This document shows positions 13,985-64,000 of a stretch of DNA of 64,000 bases, piece after piece. Source of the DNA: Candidatus Sericytochromatia bacterium (lineage in GTDB: Bacteria > Cyanobacteriota > Sericytochromatia > UBA7694). The notes under the pieces are model-generated. The model had not been told where the DNA came from, ran no database searches, and saw only the letters and a list, made by a program, of their open reading frames with translations. A program made the translations under genes and the position numbers. The DNA is taken from positions 9,271 to 73,270 of the forward strand of contig JADMKE010000014.1 in NCBI GenBank assembly GCA_018780035.1, written 5' to 3'. Each line of letters opens with the position of its first letter. Position 1 is the stretch's first letter.

Positions 13985-14197
13985 GGAAACAGCCTCTGTA
14001 TATATTGATTAATCTTTAATAGTGTGATATACGTATACGCGTGCATACTATACACAAAATCATCTGGATTGCTAATTTTCAATAATAATTTAATACCAAA
14101 TTAAATATAAGGAATGAGATTCAAAATTGTTGAACATTAGACAAGAATCACATCCTAAACGCTATTCTCGAATACATTCCTCACAAGGTAAAATCCA
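13985..14197. promoter_or_regulatory. AT-rich leader of the island with ~33 bp dyad-symmetric element (TATACGTATA / ACGCGT / GTATAC)
   Basis: The element is gtgtgatatacgtatacgcgtgcatactatacac at ~14023..14056, inside an extremely AT-rich 200 bp stretch upstream of the methyltransferase. Confidence 0.35.
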
Positions 14198-17100
14198 GTG
14201 TCAAAGCCATTAACAGCACTATACAAGGAACTCGATTTTTTAAATGGTGCTCTGTATACAGCTTCCGATACACCCTTAAAAGAGGTAAGTCCCCTTGAAT
14301 GGGTTGAAAAAGGCGAATGGTTAGCAGCAGCCAAAAGAGCTGGGGCAGAAAAAATCTTCTTTATTGAGAATAACCCAGTCGTTGTGTTTGCTGAGTGCGA
14401 TTCTGCTCCTGAAGAAAAGATCAAAGCCTTTAACCGAATCTGGAGTCTTGCTCGACCACGTTTATTATTTCTAGCCTCTCCCACTGAGATTACAGTATTA
14501 GATTTAGCCCAAGAACCCATTTTAGGTAATAAGCCGAATGAAAAAAACCGAAGCCTTAAAAGCTTGGCCACGCTTCAAGACATTTCCAAAATTGCCATTG
14601 AACTCCAAGCCTTCCATCGGAATAATGTTGAGTCGGGCAAGGTTTTTGGAGAAGAGCTTTTTGGTGATTTAAAGCATCGTGCAGATCAGGCTCTTATACA
14701 TGATATCAAAGCCGTTCGATTTGAATTGCTTGCTGCTGGTTTGCCCGTAAAGTATGCCCATGCATTGATAGGGCGCTCAATCTTTATTCGTTATTTAGAA
14801 GACAGGGGAATTCTAACAAAAGAATATTTTTTGAGTGTAGCAAAAAATAATGCCGAATGGTCAGCCTTGCTAAGTAAAGAGTATGTAGGATTGGGAGTAG
14901 ATCTATCCGAACAAGAAGTTTATTATCCTCGTGTATTATCTTCAAAATCGTTCTCGTATGCTTTATTCAAACAGTTAGCCCATGATTTTAATGGGGATAT
15001 GTTTCCCGACATTCAAGAAGAAGAGCAAGCTATCACAGAAAAGCAATTAGAACTTATTCAAGGTCTACTTTATGGAGAGGTGGGTCGGCAAAAAAAATTA
15101 TTTTTCTTTTCCTATCGATTCGACATAATCCCTCTTGATCTGATCAGTTCTATTTATGAAGAGTTTTACCATTTAGCCCTTAGCCCTGAAAACAAAAAAA
15201 ACAACGCGCGGCAAGATGGGGCATATTACACACCGCCTGTTTTAGTAGAGTTTTTGCTGGCTAGAATTTTAGATCCTGAGACCCTTGAAAAGAGTCCACG
15301 TATTTTAGACCCGGCTTGTGGATCGGGTATTTTCCTTGTTGAAGCCTTTCGCAGAATTGTTAGGTATGATTGGCATAAAAAGAATAAACGCCTGGATTTA
15401 AGTGAACTCAAATCAATTCTGAAAAATCAGATTGCTGGCATTGAAATCAATGGTGAAGCAGCCCGTATTACAGCATTTAGTCTATACCTAGCTACACTAC
15501 ATTATCTTGATCCACCCTCCATCATGGGGCAAATTAAGAGCGGCCAGAAACTGCCTAATTTATTAGTCTCGAATACAGTATCACCCAATCACTTTAACTG
15601 TATCTGGGCAGAAAAAAATGCTTTTAATTCTCAGGAGATAACAGAAAACCAACCTCTATTAGAAAAATTTTGCTCTGGAACCACTGACATCGTTATTGGC
15701 AACCCGCCATGGGGAGCACCAGGTAATAAAGCTGATAAAAAAACAAAAGCCCGCGAAAACACTATGTTGGATTGGTGTAAAAGTAATTCTAGACCTATTG
15801 GAGACAAAGAGCCTTCTCAAGCCTTTATCTGGCGAGCCTTTGATTTTGCTAAAGTTGGTGGAAAGGTTGCGCTACTTGTATCTGCCGGTGTTTTGTTCAA
15901 ACACGGGACAACTACCCAGGAATTTCGTGAAAAATGGTTGGATTCTGTACACTTAAATGAAGTATTCAACTTTAGTCATGTACGCAAATTCTTTTTTAAT
16001 GGTGCAGTGTCTCCTTTTGTAGGAATTACATTCACTAAACAAGCGCTCTGTAAAGAAAACGAAAATGTCACCTATTATTGGTCTGCAAAGCAGGTTAACA
16101 CTTTAACCAAAACACAAGCTGTCGTGTTTTCAAAATATGATGTTCATCTTCTAAAAAATGAAGATCTGAGTTCAAATATTAGTTGGAAAACATACTGGTT
16201 TGGCCGTTCTGAAGATCTAACGTTAATTAAATTGCTATTGTCTAAAAAATCATTATCTGAGTTTATCGAGCATGCGGGAAGGGGTTATGAGATTGCATCT
16301 AAAACCGAAAATGCCTCAGTGCTAGCAAAATATAATGCTCTTGATATCCGCTCCTTCTCTCGCTATGACGCAATATCTTTTACTTCCCCTCCAGAACGAG
16401 TTTATAGATTCGGAAACACCGCACTTTACTCTGGCAAACGGATTTTGGTAAAAAGAGGGATTAGCGAAAACAGTGAACCAAAAGGCCAAATTACGGCAAG
16501 GTATGAAGAAGACGATTTTTGTTTCAGAAATGCAATTCACGGCATTAAATTACTGGATGACCAAGAATGGCAATACAAAGTCTTATTAGGCATTCTTTGG
16601 TCATCCCTCACAAGATACTTTTTTTTCATGGTTTCGTCTAATTGGGGGCTCTGGCATCATGAAATACACCTGAAAGATGAATTGTTAAAGCTTCCGGTCG
16701 TGCTTGATAATACACACCCGGCTACCAGCAAAATTATTGCTATTGTGGATTCTCTCCGGAACTCTAAAACCGCTGAGAACAGTCTGTTAGATCGTTTGGC
16801 CGATAATTACCTTGAAATGCAGATAAAACGCAATCAATGGGAAGAGGAGCTTGATCAAGCTGTTTTCCAACTTTATGGACTGAACAATGAGCATCAAGAT
16901 TTGATTAGAGATTTTTGTGAGATCACATTACCCTATTTGTATCAACCTTTTACCTCTGAAGGTATTGCCCCTGTTACTGAACGAGATAATGAGTCTTCGT
17001 TAAAAGAGTATATTCAATTATTTTCGAGACGCTGGAACGCATATCTAAACGAAGATGAAGAAATGAGAGCAACCATTCATATTGGTGCTGACAATAACTT

Positions 17101-17392
17101 AGTCGCATTAGAATTCTTTCCATCTGAAAAAGGTGATAGTTGGGACTTTACGCCACACTATAATACTTGGGGAGATGTTCTTAAGGAAATGGGCAAGTCT
17201 TTGCATAACCCACTTGGAAATTCACAAATTGTTTTAGAGGGCATTGTTCATGCTGTCACCGATGATGCAATTATTATCATCAAAAGGAATGAAAAACGTT
17301 TCTGGACAAATAGCTTAGCAAGAGAAGATGCTGATGCTACCCTTTGCAAACGTATGCTTGCCGATAATATAAGGAGCAAAATAGAGGTTTAA
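14198..17392 (+). CDS. large gamma-class N6-adenine DNA methyltransferase, PglX/MmeI/Type IIG-like (no recognisable N-terminal nuclease or ATPase)
   Basis: GTG start. In order: helical-region motif FDIIPLDLISSIYEEF; motif X QDGAYYTPPVLVEFL; motif I ILDPACGSGIFLVEAF; motif IV TDIVIGNPPWGAP. Roughly 550 aa follow after NPPW, which is a candidate TRD. No Walker A motif. Composition is visibly AT-rich compared with flanks. Confidence 0.85.
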   Translation: MSKPLTALYKELDFLNGALYTASDTPLKEVSPLEWVEKGEWLAAAKRAGAEKIFFIENNPVVVFAECDSAPEEKIKAFNRIWSLARPRLLFLASPTEITVLDLAQEPILGNKPNEKNRSLKSLATLQDISKIAIELQAFHRNNVESGKVFGEELFGDLKHRADQALIHDIKAVRFELLAAGLPVKYAHALIGRSIFIRYLEDRGILTKEYFLSVAKNNAEWSALLSKEYVGLGVDLSEQEVYYPRVLSSKSFSYALFKQLAHDFNGDMFPDIQEEEQAITEKQLELIQGLLYGEVGRQKKLFFFSYRFDIIPLDLISSIYEEFYHLALSPENKKNNARQDGAYYTPPVLVEFLLARILDPETLEKSPRILDPACGSGIFLVEAFRRIVRYDWHKKNKRLDLSELKSILKNQIAGIEINGEAARITAFSLYLATLHYLDPPSIMGQIKSGQKLPNLLVSNTVSPNHFNCIWAEKNAFNSQEITENQPLLEKFCSGTTDIVIGNPPWGAPGNKADKKTKARENTMLDWCKSNSRPIGDKEPSQAFIWRAFDFAKVGGKVALLVSAGVLFKHGTTTQEFREKWLDSVHLNEVFNFSHVRKFFFNGAVSPFVGITFTKQALCKENENVTYYWSAKQVNTLTKTQAVVFSKYDVHLLKNEDLSSNISWKTYWFGRSEDLTLIKLLLSKKSLSEFIEHAGRGYEIASKTENASVLAKYNALDIRSFSRYDAISFTSPPERVYRFGNTALYSGKRILVKRGISENSEPKGQITARYEEDDFCFRNAIHGIKLLDDQEWQYKVLLGILWSSLTRYFFFMVSSNWGLWHHEIHLKDELLKLPVVLDNTHPATSKIIAIVDSLRNSKTAENSLLDRLADNYLEMQIKRNQWEEELDQAVFQLYGLNNEHQDLIRDFCEITLPYLYQPFTSEGIAPVTERDNESSLKEYIQLFSRRWNAYLNEDEEMRATIHIGADNNLVALEFFPSEKGDSWDFTPHYNTWGDVLKEMGKSLHNPLGNSQIVLEGIVHAVTDDAIIIIKRNEKRFWTNSLAREDADATLCKRMLADNIRSKIEV

Positions 17393-18072
17393 TGGCACGT
17401 AAAGCACTGCCCTCTTTTTCTGCCTTATGGGAAAAACATGAAGAAATTTATACAGGAGTGTTTAAGGCCGCTCTTCAAAGGTTGTCTGAAAAACATTTAG
17501 ATCTCTCACATGAAGATCGGATATCCGAACAGCTTTGCTTAATATTAAATCAGGTCTGTTATGAGATAAGTAATCCTGAGAGAGAAGTTCCAAATCCAAT
17601 TTGGGAAAATCCAATCCATCCTGTATCAGAGGACGAGCTTACAAATGGACGAAGCAACAAAAGGCCTGATTTTACTTGCAAGAAAGTAAACAGCTTTGCA
17701 ATAGATCCTAGCGAACATGAAATTAGTTTTCATATTGAATGTAAACGGCTAGGAAGCCCGACAAGTAGAACATGGGTTCTAAACGAAAGATATGTTACGA
17801 ATGGTATTGCACGTTTTGACTCAGCGCATGAATATGGTAAACGCGCAAATTCTGGCATGATGGTTGGCTATATTATCGATATGGAAGCAGACCAAATACT
17901 GGCAGAAGTAAATCAACATCAAAAACGTCATCTATCACATAACCCGACACTATCGTTTAACTTTGATGGAAACAAAGTAAGTACAGCGGTACAAAATTTG
18001 CAAAGACAAAATGTCCTTCCTCAAAGATTTAGGCTTTCGCATCTTTGGGTTGATTTAAAGACCTGCGCATAG
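17392..18072 (+). CDS. PD-(D/E)xK-like putative restriction-endonuclease-fold protein, translationally coupled to the methyltransferase
   Basis: TAATG stop/start overlap with the methyltransferase. Motif: KRPDFTCKK...EISFHIECKRLG, i.e. PD ... ExK. A diverged paralogue is at 63003..63674. Confidence 0.7.
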   Translation: MARKALPSFSALWEKHEEIYTGVFKAALQRLSEKHLDLSHEDRISEQLCLILNQVCYEISNPEREVPNPIWENPIHPVSEDELTNGRSNKRPDFTCKKVNSFAIDPSEHEISFHIECKRLGSPTSRTWVLNERYVTNGIARFDSAHEYGKRANSGMMVGYIIDMEADQILAEVNQHQKRHLSHNPTLSFNFDGNKVSTAVQNLQRQNVLPQRFRLSHLWVDLKTCA

Positions 18073-60377: not shown

Positions 60378-60665
60378 ATGATACGCCTCTTTTTCGTCTT
60401 GATTGCCCTGAATCTCAGCCTGACAGCCTGTCAGAGCCAAATCCCGCTTGCCACCTCATCACCGGCGCTGCGCAGCTCCGCGTTTTTACCGCCAGAGCCC
60501 GGCACCACGCCCAAACCCAAGCCCTGTGTAAATACCCAGGCGATTCTGCCGCCAGGCTTGAATCCCAAACCGGGCTGTCCTTGTTCAGGAATCAAACCCC
60601 GTGCGTTTATTCCGGTTGAGCCGGGGATGCCTGGGAATCCGTTGAAGCCGAAGCCGGGGTGTTAG
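60378..60665 (+). CDS. small Pro/Cys-rich lipoprotein
   Basis: Lipobox LTAC. PKPxP repeats and four Cys. Confidence 0.5.
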   Translation: MIRLFFVLIALNLSLTACQSQIPLATSSPALRSSAFLPPEPGTTPKPKPCVNTQAILPPGLNPKPGCPCSGIKPRAFIPVEPGMPGNPLKPKPGC

Positions 60666-61101: not shown

Positions 61102-61183
61102 GTCGGCGTGTCCGAGTGGTTAAGGAAGCAGTCTGCAAAACTGTTGGGGAAACCCGTCGTGAGTTCAAATCTCACCGCCGACT
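61102..61183 (+). tRNA. tRNA with anticodon GCA (Cys) and discriminator U73, but class-II-like long variable arm (14 nt) and 3-bp D-stem
   Basis: Manual fold: acceptor GTCGGCG/CGCCGAC; D TCC-GAGTGGTTAAG-GGA; anticodon stem GCAGT/ACTGT with loop CTGCAAA; variable TGGGGAAACCCGTC; T-arm GTGAG-TTCAAAT-CTCAC. CCA is not encoded. Confidence 0.65.
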
Positions 61184-61231
61184 CTGAAGTTGCTCCCATC
61201 ACATGGGTGAAAATGGGCAACTTCTCTTTTG

Positions 61232-61307
61232 TGCGCGAGTGAAGGGAATTTGGCATACCTCAGATACTCAGAATATCTGGTTTAAGCGTTCGAGTCGCTT
61301 CTCGCGT
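61232..61307 (+). tRNA. tRNA-like gene, anticodon CAG (Leu) but class-I shape (5-nt variable arm); imperfect D-stem
   Basis: Acceptor GCGCGAG/CTCGCGT (G1-U72). Anticodon stem AGATA/TATCT with loop CTCAGAA. T-arm AAGCG-TTCGAGT-CGCTT. Needs tRNAscan/ARAGORN confirmation. Confidence 0.45.
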
Positions 61308-61313
61308 ACCTTT

Positions 61314-61387
61314 TGCCGCAATACCCCAATTGGCAGAGGGAATAGGTCGAGAGCCTATTCAGTGAAAGTTCGAGTCTTTCTTGCGGT
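61314..61387 (+). tRNA. tRNA-like gene, anticodon GAG (Leu), class-I shape, C33 in anticodon loop
   Basis: Acceptor GCCGCAA/TTGCGGT. Anticodon stem (G)AATAGG/CCTATT(C) with loop TCGAGAG. T-arm GAAAG-TTCGAGT-CTTTC. Atypical, and may be a pseudo-tRNA. Confidence 0.4.
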
Positions 61388-61392
61388 ACTGA

Positions 61393-61472
61393 GGTCCCTG
61401 TGGCGTAACAGGTAGCCGCATCTGCCTTAAGAGCAGACGTTTATTCGTGGAGGTTCGAATCCTCTCAGGGAC
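61393..61472 (+). tRNA. tRNA-Leu (anticodon TAA)
   Basis: Acceptor GTCCCTG/CAGGGAC. D GCG-TAACAGGTAGC-CGC. Anticodon TCTGC-CTTAAGA-GCAGA. 11-nt variable arm. T GGAGG-TTCGAAT-CCTCT. Discriminator A. Confidence 0.8.
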
Positions 61473-61476
61473 ACTC

Positions 61477-61560
61477 TGTCGGAATGGGGGAATTGGTAGA
61501 CCCGGCAGGCTCAAACCCTGCTGCTTTAAAAAGCGTGAGAGTTCGAATCTCTCTTCCGAT
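61477..61560 (+). tRNA. tRNA-Leu (anticodon CAA)
   Basis: Acceptor GTCGGAA/TTCCGAT. Anticodon GCAGG-CTCAAAC-CCTGC. 15-nt variable arm with hairpin. T GAGAG-TTCGAAT-CTCTC. Discriminator A. Confidence 0.8.
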
Positions 61561-61627
61561 ATTGACTTTCTGAGGTCAAAGAATCAGAATCAATCCAGAC
61601 AGTCTAGATTTAAAAAAGGGGTGCTTC

Positions 61628-61879
61628 ATGTCCAAAAATTGGCAACTTCAAGAGGCAAAAAATAAATTCAGTCAGGTGGTCGATTGCGCGTGTAACGAAG
61701 GCCCCCAAATTGTGACACGACACGGAAAAGAAACCGTGGTGATTCTCTCACTTGAAGATGACCAAGAACTTTTAAAGCCCCAAAACGCCTTGGTCGATTT
61801 TTTTGCGGCATCCCCTTTAAAGGGCTTGAATTTAGATCTGGAAAGAAATGCTTCAGCACCCCGACCTGTTGATTTATGA
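61628..61879 (+). CDS. Phd/YefM-family antitoxin
   Basis: MSKNWQLQEAKNKFSQVVDCACNEGPQIVTRHGKETVVILSLEDDQELL is the typical Phd/YefM fold. ATGA overlap with the following PIN toxin ORF. Confidence 0.85.
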   Translation: MSKNWQLQEAKNKFSQVVDCACNEGPQIVTRHGKETVVILSLEDDQELLKPQNALVDFFAASPLKGLNLDLERNASAPRPVDL

Positions 61880-62019
61880 AATATCTGCTGGATACCTGTC
61901 TTCTCTCTGAATTACTCAAGCCACAACCCCAAGAGACTGTGATTGAATGGTTTCAAACGGTTCCAGAAACACAGCTCTATTTGTCTGTTTTGACCCTGGG
62001 AGAACTTCATAAAGGGTGA
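61876..62019 (+). pseudogene. vapC: vapC (PIN-domain toxin) truncated after 47 codons
   Basis: MKYLLDTCLLSELLKPQPQETVIEWF...VLTLGELHKG then TGA. A full PIN domain is ~130 aa. TTAGCAA-type AT-rich repeats follow immediately, and composition drops to AT-rich. Confidence 0.75.
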
Positions 62020-62138
62020 GGGCAAGTTACAAGTTTAAAACCGGTGCTAGATTTAGCAAATTAGCAATGGTGTCAAGGGCAGTGAGTTAGTAAGGTAGTA
62101 ATTAGCAAATGACAATAATTCTTTTAAAAATTCAACAA

Positions 62139-62903
62139 TTAAATTTTTATATCAGCTGGTGAATTTCTTTTTTGAGAGCTTTCTTCTTTACTCATAAAAT
62201 CTTTATACATTCGGATATTGTTTTTTAAAATATTCGAATCTTTTGTCGCTTCAGATCTTGATCTTATTTTTAATGTTACATAATCTCGATTTCCCAACAA
62301 ACCTGTACTACTAACTTCATATCCATATTTTTCCCCCAAATAAATTTTTACGTTTTCTGCCCAAGCAAAAATTTTAAATTGAGAATTTTTCTCAATTTGC
62401 TCTCGAACATATTCGCCTCGGGTTTCTTCTGTATATTCTGTTCCTTGAAAAATTAACTTTGACCTAGAAAAATCATCAGCGAGACTTTTGCTATAAACCT
62501 TTGTTAACAGAAGTTGAGCTTTTGAGTTTTCTCGAGTCCAAATATCTAAATATTCTACATCCTCCCATAGTCTTGAATCAGTGTATTGACTAATTTCTTT
62601 ATCTCGATTATATTTTCTTTTTACAAGAGAAAGTGTTTCTTCTACTAAGTCGGCTTTTTTATCGCCCATTCGATTGGAAGTAGGATATGAAAGTTCAATA
62701 TCTAGGAAAACATTATCTTGCAACTGGCGAAATGCAATTATCCGCCAGACATCCATAGAATCAAGAGGACCAATATAATAGGTAGCTAAAAACGGATGTC
62801 TATTTATCCAATTAATGGTATCTTGGTATTTGTCTCCAGGAAGAGCATAAGCAGAATGACAAATCGATACAAATACTGATGTTAATAACAATATTTTTTT
62901 CAT
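62139..62903 (-). CDS. secreted hypothetical protein (AT-rich island 2)
   Basis: Signal peptide MKKILLLTSVFVSICHSAYA. Lys/Glu/Tyr-rich with low-GC codon usage. Confidence 0.6.
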   Translation of the reverse strand: MKKILLLTSVFVSICHSAYALPGDKYQDTINWINRHPFLATYYIGPLDSMDVWRIIAFRQLQDNVFLDIELSYPTSNRMGDKKADLVEETLSLVKRKYNRDKEISQYTDSRLWEDVEYLDIWTRENSKAQLLLTKVYSKSLADDFSRSKLIFQGTEYTEETRGEYVREQIEKNSQFKIFAWAENVKIYLGEKYGYEVSSTGLLGNRDYVTLKIRSRSEATKDSNILKNNIRMYKDFMSKEESSQKRNSPADIKI

Positions 62904-63002
62904 ATAGTCAATATTCCTAATATATCAATTATTTCTGACTCTAAATGAGTCCCAAGGTACACTTTCTGATGTTTGGCAAATGGCGAAGAATTTTAAGGTA
63001 AT

Positions 63003-63674
63003 TTAAACATCGGCAGAAACTATCGTTGCTCTGAAATCCAAAAAAACATGCAATAAATCAAGATGACTGCCATCTGAGCGGGTATGCTTACTTTCCCATT
63101 CATGGGGCAAATCTTTGAGAACCTGGACTTTTTTTAGGGGTTCAACAATGTTTAAAGTTGGATCCTCTTTTGAATTATCAAAGATCTTTTGTAATTGTCT
63201 AAACCAATGATCTGGAGATAAGTCCTGAATATAAGCCAACATTCCCGCTTCGGGCTGCTCCACGGCATACTCACATTTCAAAAAACACTGCATACCCCCA
63301 TCACCAGTATATTTACGGATAGTATGAGTACCTTTTTTTAAACGTTTGGCCTCAAAGCAAAATTTGGGTCGTGGTTTTGTGTGACTGTTAGAAATCACAA
63401 TATCTATGCGTTTGCGATTTTTTCCAGAAGCGGAAACATGTGGAACATGGGTTTCTTCTCCGATATGATAGTGTTCATATTCTTGTGGAGTGTCTCGATC
63501 ATTAAATCTTAAGTCTATGGCTTCTGTTAGCCAACCAGTGATATCTTCTTCTTGATTTTCGGGAGTCACTTTTGATTTGATATCTTCGTATCCCCAAGCT
63601 AAAAGCTGATGCACACACTCTCTAACTCTCGAAAAGTAAGTTTGCCAGAGAGCGTCTGGCTTATTTAAAATCAC
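63003..63674 (-). CDS. PD-(D/E)xK-like protein, paralogue of the 17392..18072 protein
   Basis: KRIDIVIS...KFCFEAKRLKKG...YTGDGGMQCFLKCEYA aligns to RPDFTCKK...ISFHIECKRLGS...YVTNGIARFDSAHEYG. The N-termini also match (ALWQ vs ALWEK). GTG start overlaps the upstream ORF stop (GTGA). Confidence 0.65.
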   Translation of the reverse strand: MILNKPDALWQTYFSRVRECVHQLLAWGYEDIKSKVTPENQEEDITGWLTEAIDLRFNDRDTPQEYEHYHIGEETHVPHVSASGKNRKRIDIVISNSHTKPRPKFCFEAKRLKKGTHTIRKYTGDGGMQCFLKCEYAVEQPEAGMLAYIQDLSPDHWFRQLQKIFDNSKEDPTLNIVEPLKKVQVLKDLPHEWESKHTRSDGSHLDLLHVFLDFRATIVSADV

Positions 63675-64000
63675 ACAAACGCTCCTGAATAACTCAGAAT
63701 CTCAGCAATGATTTCATCAGCATCAATCATGGCTTGGGTACATGTCCAATCTATCAAACGCGGAGTTTTCCAGATATGATAATATTTCCCATCCAAAACA
63801 CGCAGACCTTGTTGAACATAGAGCCATTGGCTAAAAGGCTTTTTTAAAATCTGCCATAGATGCTCATCTTCCTCAGATAGCTCTTCAAGTTTTTGAATAT
63901 AGGGAGCAAGCGGCTCTAGAGCATCAGTTATTTCTACAGTACAGGAAATAAATTCCGAGTATTGTTTTATGTTTATGAGATGATGTTTGTATGCAAATGA
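63671..64000 (-). CDS. hypothetical protein, N-terminus off-window, translationally coupled to the PD-(D/E)xK paralogue
   Basis: The minus-strand frame is open from the window end to the TGA at 63671..63673 (...KTPRLIDWTCTQAMIDADEIIAEILSYSGAFV*). No domain recognised. Confidence 0.5.
   Translation of the reverse strand, partial: SFAYKHHLINIKQYSEFISCTVEITDALEPLAPYIQKLEELSEEDEHLWQILKKPFSQWLYVQQGLRVLDGKYYHIWKTPRLIDWTCTQAMIDADEIIAEILSYSGAFV

Follow-up and report, generated by a model that had tools for sequence, protein, structure and literature searches.

We examined a stretch of 64,000 nucleotides (nt) from a Candidatus Sericytochromatia bacterium (contig JADMKE010000014.1; the whole stretch is hereafter called the window) and noted that it carries two related two-gene modules, each lying in an AT-rich island of its own. 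In both modules the gene for a large N6-adenine methyltransferase is followed, with overlapping stop and start codons, by the gene for a small protein predicted to be a nuclease of the PD-(D/E)xK superfamily. Island 1 encodes proteins of 1064 and 226 amino acids (aa), and island 2, which runs over the end of the window, encodes proteins of 1017 and 223 aa. We consider that each pair probably constitutes a two-subunit restriction-modification system in which sequence specificity resides in the large subunit and the small subunit serves as a generic nuclease, a reading that draws on sequence comparison and structural modeling.

The small proteins and their predicted fold

The initial annotation of the window proposed that the 223-aa protein is a second, distant copy of the PD-(D/E)xK family to which the 226-aa protein of island 1 belongs. 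Direct comparison of the two proteins by BLASTP was marginal (E = 0.034, 26% identity over 109 aa), and hhalign with small alignments (A1, 9 sequences; A2, 27 sequences) returned E = 1.2e-4 at a probability of 55%. A word-indexed search had given 9 hits. An exhaustive profile search of the 223-aa family yielded 1911 representatives at 50% identity, of which 293 reached E <= 1e-30, and a 159-sequence profile was built from its hits. With this deeper profile the hhalign probability was 96.5% (E = 7.6e-10, 140 columns), so that the similarity between the two small proteins is significant by profile-profile comparison. Moreover, a hidden Markov model derived from the same profile matched all 120 of 120 island-1-type proteins, the best of them at 44.5 bits. 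The blocks GK-R-R-D, E-x-K-R-L, G-x-x-x-F, EY, and GM-x-GYI are aligned between the two families, in agreement with the alignment of the catalytic block that had been put forward. An N-terminal match of the string ALW, proposed at the same time, did not survive. The profile alignment pairs Y13 with Y20 and the two ALW strings are 4 residues out of register, so this match was dropped. At the level of sequence, the 223-aa protein is confirmed as a distant paralogue of the 226-aa protein within a single PD-(D/E)xK family.

Confident AlphaFold models were obtained for the 223-aa and 226-aa proteins (predicted local distance difference test [pLDDT] 83.2 and 82.1, respectively; predicted template modeling score [pTM] 0.83). 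The structural neighbors of the 223-aa model were BamHI (score 7.6), OkrAI (7.6), BglII (7.0), BstYI (6.8), and McrC (6.8), and its list continues with many further restriction endonucleases; the corresponding scores for the 226-aa model were 6.3, 6.1, 4.7, 5.7, and 4.0. In the 223-aa model, the strand formed by residues 92-96 comes after D91, the strand at 104-113 contains both E108 and K110, and E42 is the first residue of the helix at 42-57, an arrangement that, in the model, is the canonical PD-(D/E)xK layout. The residues that characterize the superfamily (an aspartate where beta-2 begins, a (D/E)xK motif in beta-3, and a glutamate in an upstream helix) are thus accounted for. Inspection of 82 diverse members revealed ten invariant positions, namely, E42, D91, E108, K110, L112, G127, Y136, M145, H197, and H209; P92-D93 and E116-C-K118 are invariant in the 27 island-1-type members. 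Since a Foldseek search of the PDB gave no significant match for the small-protein model, we rate the structural evidence as moderate. On this evidence, together with the invariant motif, we accept the small proteins as predicted nucleases.

Neither small protein had a usable match among Pfam, NCBIfam, and PADLOC models or PDB sequences. The sole weak matches were to DUF7767 (E = 0.17) and a homeodomain, the latter a chance match (E = 0.16), and the proteins are named "hypothetical protein" in every public source examined. The small subunits range from 214 to 238 aa and have no ATPase domain and no Pfam match. No relatives were present in the phage collection, and on plasmids only the distant relatives from Agrobacterium were found.

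Methyltransferase partners and linkage of the two genes

The minus-strand reading frame upstream of the 223-aa open reading frame (ORF) is open from position 64000 to a TGA at 63673-63671 and had been reported as an ORF running off the edge of the window. We recovered the remainder on Logan contig SRR12964611_222546 by an exact look-up of the 223-aa protein. Extension past position 64000 revealed that the partner is another methyltransferase rather than the product of an ordinary housekeeping gene. This 1017-aa protein (L001:347-3400) contains N6_Mtase, MmeI_Mtase, and Eco57I domains and is publicly named "N-6 DNA methylase" (MBT9545714.1). Pfam analysis of the 1064-aa protein of island 1 identified N6_Mtase, Eco57I, and MmeI_Mtase domains as well as a weak TaqI_C match at 741-833. 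The two large subunits are homologous (BLASTP 2e-50, 28% identity over the first ~560 residues), and in an alignment of nine proteins the two types can be aligned end to end, including a common C-terminal tail. The best PADLOC model common to both is REase_MTase_IIG PDLC03603 (1.3e-52 for island 1 and 1e-57 for island 2). The initial annotation had described a nuclease module traveling with different large partners. Because the partners are the same kind of protein, we are dealing not with a shuffling effector but with a fixed two-gene system present in two paralogous copies.

The motifs D-P-x-C-G-S-G and N-P-P-W are invariant in the nine aligned large subunits, and their order (motif I, then motif IV NPPW) is that of gamma-class N6-adenine methyltransferases. 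The in-chain N-terminal PD-ExK nuclease that distinguishes Type IIG/IIL enzymes was not found in these proteins. When 13 large subunits representing three subfamilies were compared over their N-terminal 300 residues, the invariant positions were restricted to W, P, G, L, L, L, L, R, F, and G, with no acidic residue or lysine among them. A profile of the N-terminal 300 aa matched no PDB sequence. We also considered whether the N terminus, the recognition region, or the C terminus of the large subunit is a degenerate relative of the small nuclease, and rejected this (hhalign probability of at most 12%).

Linkage was assessed over a set of loci made up of the two pairs in the window, four relatives of the 223-aa protein and three of the 226-aa protein, Agrobacterium Ti/At plasmids, 23 loci from species-representative genomes, and two ~30%-identical members from the exhaustive search. 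The genome scan used the 9-sequence alignment, as the 82-sequence alignment was too diverse for a scan. In about 30 of 30 loci with sufficient upstream sequence, the small gene lies directly after a gene encoding a ~960-1115-aa N6_Mtase/MmeI_Mtase/Eco57I protein; the loci outside this count are cut off at a contig edge or have visibly decayed (L034, L035). The count takes in 17 genome loci and, in addition, the Calothrix locus L017, where the upstream gene encodes only 891 aa and motifs I and IV have decayed. The two genes usually overlap by 1, 4, or 8 nt, and where a gap separates them it does not exceed 12 nt. The genes around the pair differ from locus to locus and are not related. In island 2, the GTG start at 63674-63672, which is the first possible start of the 223-aa ORF after an in-frame stop, overlaps the TGA of the large gene by 4 nt (GTGA). 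In island 1, the ATG of the 226-aa gene overlaps the stop codon of the large gene by 1 nt. The proposal that the small gene is translationally coupled to its upstream partner is supported.

The pair is found in cyanobacteria (Calothrix, Pseudanabaena, Alkalinema, Spirulina, Microcystaceae, Caldora, and Symploca) and in Sericytochromatia. Further hosts are Peptococcaceae, Syntrophales, Aminicenantes, Blastocatellia, Anaerolineales, Ktedonobacterales, Binatota, Rhizobium, and Agrobacterium. At the level of phyla, the loci cover Cyanobacteria, Bacillota, Acidobacteriota, and Chloroflexota, and they also include plasmids of Agrobacterium. Of the 18 evaluable genome loci, 17 have a methyltransferase with intact catalytic motifs. 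The A1-type nucleases always occur with A1-type methyltransferases and the A2-type nucleases with A2-type methyltransferases, and identity to the island-1 methyltransferase is 55-58% for island-1-type partners compared with 22-24% for island-2-type partners. The large and small proteins have thus diverged together. The distant relatives on the Agrobacterium Ti/At plasmids bridge both small-protein families.

Island 2 is a separate AT-rich island, as first described. The guanine-plus-cytosine (GC) content of positions 62001-64000 is 0.32-0.385 against a background of ~0.52, and the sole other comparable trough in the window is island 1 (14001-18000; GC 0.38-0.39). The AT-rich islands, the tRNA array beside island 2, and the occurrence of some relatives in defense islands or on conjugative plasmids form a mobility and defense context that supports the restriction-modification reading. 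Of the view that the small protein is a modular defense effector, the defense-related appearance is supported, but the shuffling between partners is contradicted by the co-occurrence survey, in which the pair was fixed.

Location of sequence specificity and competing explanations

In order to see which part of the system varies, 19 island-2-type pairs were compared domain by domain. Among close pairs, identity is 80-91% for the small protein, 85-94% for the N terminus of the large subunit, and 75-90% for the methyltransferase, but only 40-58% for residues 601-830 of the large subunit. The recognition region is thus shuffled between relatives that are otherwise conserved, a pattern that we interpret as recognition-domain swapping, typical of restriction-modification specificity families and known from the MmeI family and from Type I systems. 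The large subunits carry this variable C-terminal recognition domain in the same chain as the methyltransferase. The nuclease does not co-vary with the recognition domain of the methyltransferase, as it would have to in a classical Type IIP pair. Since residues 601-830 have diverged while the nuclease is conserved, specificity would reside in the large subunit and the nuclease would have none of its own.

In the mechanism that we favor, the large subunit (~1000 aa) would consist of a noncatalytic N-terminal alpha/beta domain with a helical connector, a gamma-class N6-adenine methyltransferase, a fast-evolving recognition region, and a conserved C-terminal tail. It would read the DNA sequence and methylate adenine at host sites, and this methylation would protect the host DNA. 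The small subunit (~220 aa), translated from the overlapping start and made in step with the large subunit through translational coupling, would be a small BamHI-fold PD-(D/E)xK endonuclease lacking sequence specificity of its own. It would form a complex by docking on the large subunit, would depend on it for activity, and would cut DNA once the large subunit had engaged a site lacking methylation, with a presumed anti-phage function. This arrangement can be viewed equivalently as a Type IIG/IIL (MmeI-like) enzyme with its nuclease in trans or as a Type III-like operon (Mod, then Res) that lacks the helicase motor. Two paralogous systems of this kind would be present in the window; they presumably differ in specificity, and each lies in a separate AT-rich island acquired horizontally.

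Other explanations of the pair have to be weighed against this one. If it were a classical Type II pair, the small protein would be a homodimeric Type IIP-like endonuclease with its own site and the large protein an independent, unusually large cognate methyltransferase. Two findings would be consistent with this: the closest structural neighbors (BamHI, OkrAI, BglII, and BstYI) are Type IIP enzymes that match the small protein in size, and the methyltransferase and nuclease genes are adjacent in a mobile island. However, Type IIP nucleases of different specificity normally have no detectable sequence similarity, as stated in PMC2731913, whereas the nuclease family described here is large and well conserved, as judged by its 1911 representatives and ten invariant residues. 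Furthermore, the recognition region has diverged and the nuclease has not, so an independently specific nuclease would no longer match its own methyltransferase. We regard a classical Type II pair as quite improbable. It is rather improbable that the large protein is a complete single-chain Type IIG enzyme with a cryptic nuclease and that the small protein is an accessory, either a second-strand cutter, as in BspD6I, BtsI, and BsrDI, or a regulator. A cryptic nuclease is difficult to reconcile with the finding that, across the three subfamilies, no acidic residue or lysine is invariant within the N-terminal 300 residues; an "AEAK"-like stretch is not conserved, and the N-terminal profile has no sequence match among solved structures and no relationship to the small nuclease.

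A further explanation is a nonclassical defense or addiction module, with the methyltransferase acting as a sensor or as an antitoxin-like restraint and the nuclease acting as a toxic effector that is released on infection (abortive infection) or targets modified DNA. The islands lie near toxin-antitoxin genes, and a nuclease that is harmless by default would fit a Calothrix locus, described below, where an intact nuclease gene accompanies a methyltransferase with dead motifs. That is a single locus that may simply be decaying, however, and the methyltransferase motifs are otherwise intact in the evaluable genome loci and invariant in the nine-protein alignment. In addition, diversification of the recognition region is the signature of self/nonself marking by sequence-specific methylation, and we consider an addiction module unlikely. 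An orphan or regulatory methyltransferase accompanied by an unrelated, cotranscribed DNA-repair or recombination nuclease would be in keeping with the generic annotation of both proteins. Against such a nondefense role, the linkage with start/stop overlap is maintained across several phyla and on plasmids, and the patchy distribution, the AT-rich horizontally acquired islands, and the presence of two divergent copies in one genome fit mobile defense genes rather than housekeeping ones. We judge this role to be very improbable.

Several points weigh against a two-subunit restriction-modification system. No fused form of the large and small proteins was seen. The N-terminal domain of the large subunit is well conserved, and its role is unexplained. 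The evidence for a physical interaction between the subunits consists of gene linkage, coupling, and co-divergence. Finally, in Calothrix sp. PCC 7716 (L017 2282-5636, AP025018.1) the large subunit is shortened to 891 aa, motif I is degenerate (DPCCSCG), and NPPW is replaced by GNYD; the downstream 223-aa nuclease gene is intact and retains the D...EAK residues. A live nuclease acting independently beside a dead methyltransferase would be expected to be lethal, so this locus fits either a nuclease that requires a functional large subunit or a locus that is dying. Outside these two circumstances, such a single case would be unexpected in a live restriction-modification pair.

Known systems, individual loci, and genomic surroundings

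The MmeI-family Type IIL/IIG enzymes (MmeI, PDB 5HR4; PMC2582602, PMC2731913, PMC4833311) likewise combine an N-terminal domain, a helical connector, a gamma-class N6-adenine methyltransferase, and a recognition domain in one chain, and here too close relatives differ by swaps of the recognition region within an otherwise conserved chain. MmeI is also the PDB entry whose sequence matches the island-2 large subunit best, although the match is confined to the methyltransferase core (28.6 bits). Unlike the proteins described here, MmeI is a single protein with its own N-terminal D-X-EXK nuclease, whereas the BamHI-fold nuclease of our pair is encoded by a separate downstream gene and the large subunit has an extra conserved C-terminal region of ~190 aa. 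The MmeI/Type IIG group is defined by a nuclease within the same chain, and the pair, whose large subunit lacks one, falls outside it.

Type III systems (Mod and Res, e.g., EcoP15I) share with the pair the methyltransferase-then-nuclease order, which held at all loci examined, the location of specificity in the methyltransferase only, and a nuclease that would depend on the methyltransferase for targeting. Res, however, is an ATP-requiring superfamily 2 (SF2) helicase-nuclease of ~900-1000 aa, whereas the small protein is ~220 aa long and has no ATPase, and for want of a helicase the pair is not Type III. Type III Mod belongs to a different methyltransferase class, with an inserted recognition domain.

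The Type IIP enzymes BamHI, OkrAI, BstYI, and BglII have no detectable sequence similarity to the small proteins and read their own palindromic sites, whereas the small family is conserved while the recognition region of its partner changes; the small-protein model also shows an extra N-terminal two-helix hairpin. In the heterodimeric Type IIS/IIT enzymes (R.BspD6I small subunit, PDB 2P14; BtsI, BsrDI, BbvCI; PMC6326814), a small PD-(D/E)xK subunit without recognition is similarly recruited by a large reader. Their large subunit is a nuclease or nickase and their methyltransferases are separate, whereas here the large subunit is a methyltransferase without a nuclease site.

BREX PglX, MANTIS (Gao_RL) MtsC, and MADS MAD2 resemble the large subunit in being large MmeI-like N6-adenine methyltransferases with built-in specificity and no nuclease of their own, and they gave weak matches. 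Membership in these systems was rejected, as the NCBIfam scores were 15-60 bits against cut-offs of 400-900 (e.g., 60 versus 400) and the obligatory partners are absent. As defined in the MANTIS preprint and PMC12839542, these partners are PglZ and BrxC for BREX; MtsA, MtsB, and MtsD for MANTIS, which needs two ATPases and a helicase-nuclease; and MAD1-8 for MADS. No PglZ or ATPase is conserved among the flanking genes of the loci examined, at which two genes only are conserved. The Haloferax protein HVO_A0006, which has been termed a "split Type IIG" (PMC4389544), was also set aside as a different case, being a fragment of a canonical N-terminal IIG nuclease domain. We found no description of the methyltransferase-nuclease gene pair in the literature, a weak absence given that REBASE and most subscription journals lay outside the search. 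What would be new here is the proposed subunit architecture, together with the unannotated nuclease family; the overall kind of system, restriction-modification, is known.

Several individual loci deserve mention. In two Sericytochromatia metagenome-assembled genomes (MAGs; L014 and L001), the orthologous large subunits are 100% identical over residues 131-830, 91% identical at the N terminus, and 85% identical at the C terminus; identity between the small proteins is 87%. Such a mosaic suggests that the central segment, with the methyltransferase and the recognition region, recombined recently. The sister Sericytochromatia MAG JBFWRL01 has two island-2-type copies, L014 and L015, which match the protein of the window at 86% and 52% identity, respectively. 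Domain by domain, the L015 pair shows 96-99% identity to the L002 pair, which lies on an unrelated contig from Joint Genome Institute (JGI) metagenome 3300009873, a near-identity that suggests recent horizontal transfer.

On the conjugative pAt/pTi plasmids of Agrobacterium (L012 1172-6309 and L013 1446-6564), the pair is preceded by a gene for an "RHE_PE00001 family" protein (DUF1612 and HTH_13) and a 61-64-aa ORF. The upstream gene order is the same in both plasmids, and SIR2 and AAA-ATPase genes are nearby; the upstream genes may represent an extended four-gene version or a regulator. In Peptococcaceae bacterium SCADC1_2_3 (L008 115-11770), the pair lies in a dense defense island, directly after a BrxC/PglY-N and DUF6079 ATPase gene, and is followed by a Type III Mod/Res pair and a clustered regularly interspaced short palindromic repeat (CRISPR) RAMP gene; the BrxC/PglY-N ATPase is absent at the other loci. 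At one locus only (L007 2692-2910), the gene for a 72-aa Cro/C1-type helix-turn-helix protein (HTH_26, E = 9e-18) lies 17 nt ahead of the large-subunit gene, which is the position of a restriction-modification controller (C) protein.

The features of the window are listed in Table 1. Island 2 adjoins an array of tRNA genes, which is followed by an antitoxin gene and an overlapping 47-aa ORF that resembles the start of a toxin gene. AT-rich DNA begins directly after this ORF, and island 2 may have replaced the 3' part of a PIN/VapC-like toxin gene. A search for direct repeats bounding island 2 returned only short matches at chance level. The gene that comes shortly after the nuclease gene, where the AT content is highest (GC 0.32), encodes a 254-aa protein for which no family match was found. 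It occupies the same position in the sister Sericytochromatia MAG (L014 5772-6536) and is not beside the module in other lineages, which argues that it is island cargo rather than a component of the system. The 95-aa ORF between an AraC-family regulator gene and the tRNA array is called as a gene on the Logan contig too and has no Pfam match.

Table 1. Positions of the two modules and of neighboring features in the window
Feature	Position	Strand	Remarks
Island-1 large subunit	14198..17392	+	1064-aa methyltransferase with recognition region; motif I DPACGSG, motif IV NPPW
Island-1 small subunit	17392..18072	+	226-aa predicted PD-(D/E)xK nuclease; P92-D93 ... E116-C-K118
95-aa ORF	60378..60665	+	Lipoprotein-like signal (…LSLTAC); proline-rich PKPKP-type repetitive body
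tRNA array	61102..61562	+	Cys-GCA and four Leu (CAG, GAG, TAA, CAA)
Antitoxin gene	61628..61879		PhdYefM type
47-aa ORF	61876..62019		Starts MKYLLDTCLL like a PIN/VapC toxin; early stop
254-aa protein	62139..62903	-	Signal-peptide-like N terminus
Island-2 small subunit	63003..63674	-	223-aa predicted PD-(D/E)xK nuclease, BamHI-like fold in the model; GTG start; catalytic candidates E42, D91, E108, K110
Island-2 large subunit, 3' end	63671..64000	-	Last 109 codons and stop; rest beyond window; TGA overlaps GTG (GTGA)
AGGAG, Shine-Dalgarno-like	63682..63686	-	7 nt upstream of GTG, within end of large gene; read from sequence

If confirmed, the pair would represent a distinct restriction-modification subunit architecture, in which the methyltransferase-specificity subunit has lost, or never had, a nuclease and a small, constant nuclease is encoded downstream. 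More tentatively, this architecture may be a widespread one that has gone unrecognized, a "split Type IIG" or ATP-independent Type III-like system in which one universal BamHI-fold nuclease is retargeted by swapping the recognition region of an MmeI-like methyltransferase. Since PADLOC takes the large gene by itself for a complete Type IIG enzyme, censuses of defense systems and interpretations of methylomes miss or misclassify such loci, and if the "split Type IIG" notion is true, thousands of "Type IIG" or "orphan methylase" calls would be misassigned. The pair would also be a naturally modular and potentially reprogrammable restriction enzyme, and a nuclease that is indifferent to the recognition region would, like the MmeI family, be of interest to enzyme engineers. 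For the genome examined, the finding would mean that a nonphotosynthetic relative of the cyanobacteria has acquired two divergent copies of such a system in separate islands.

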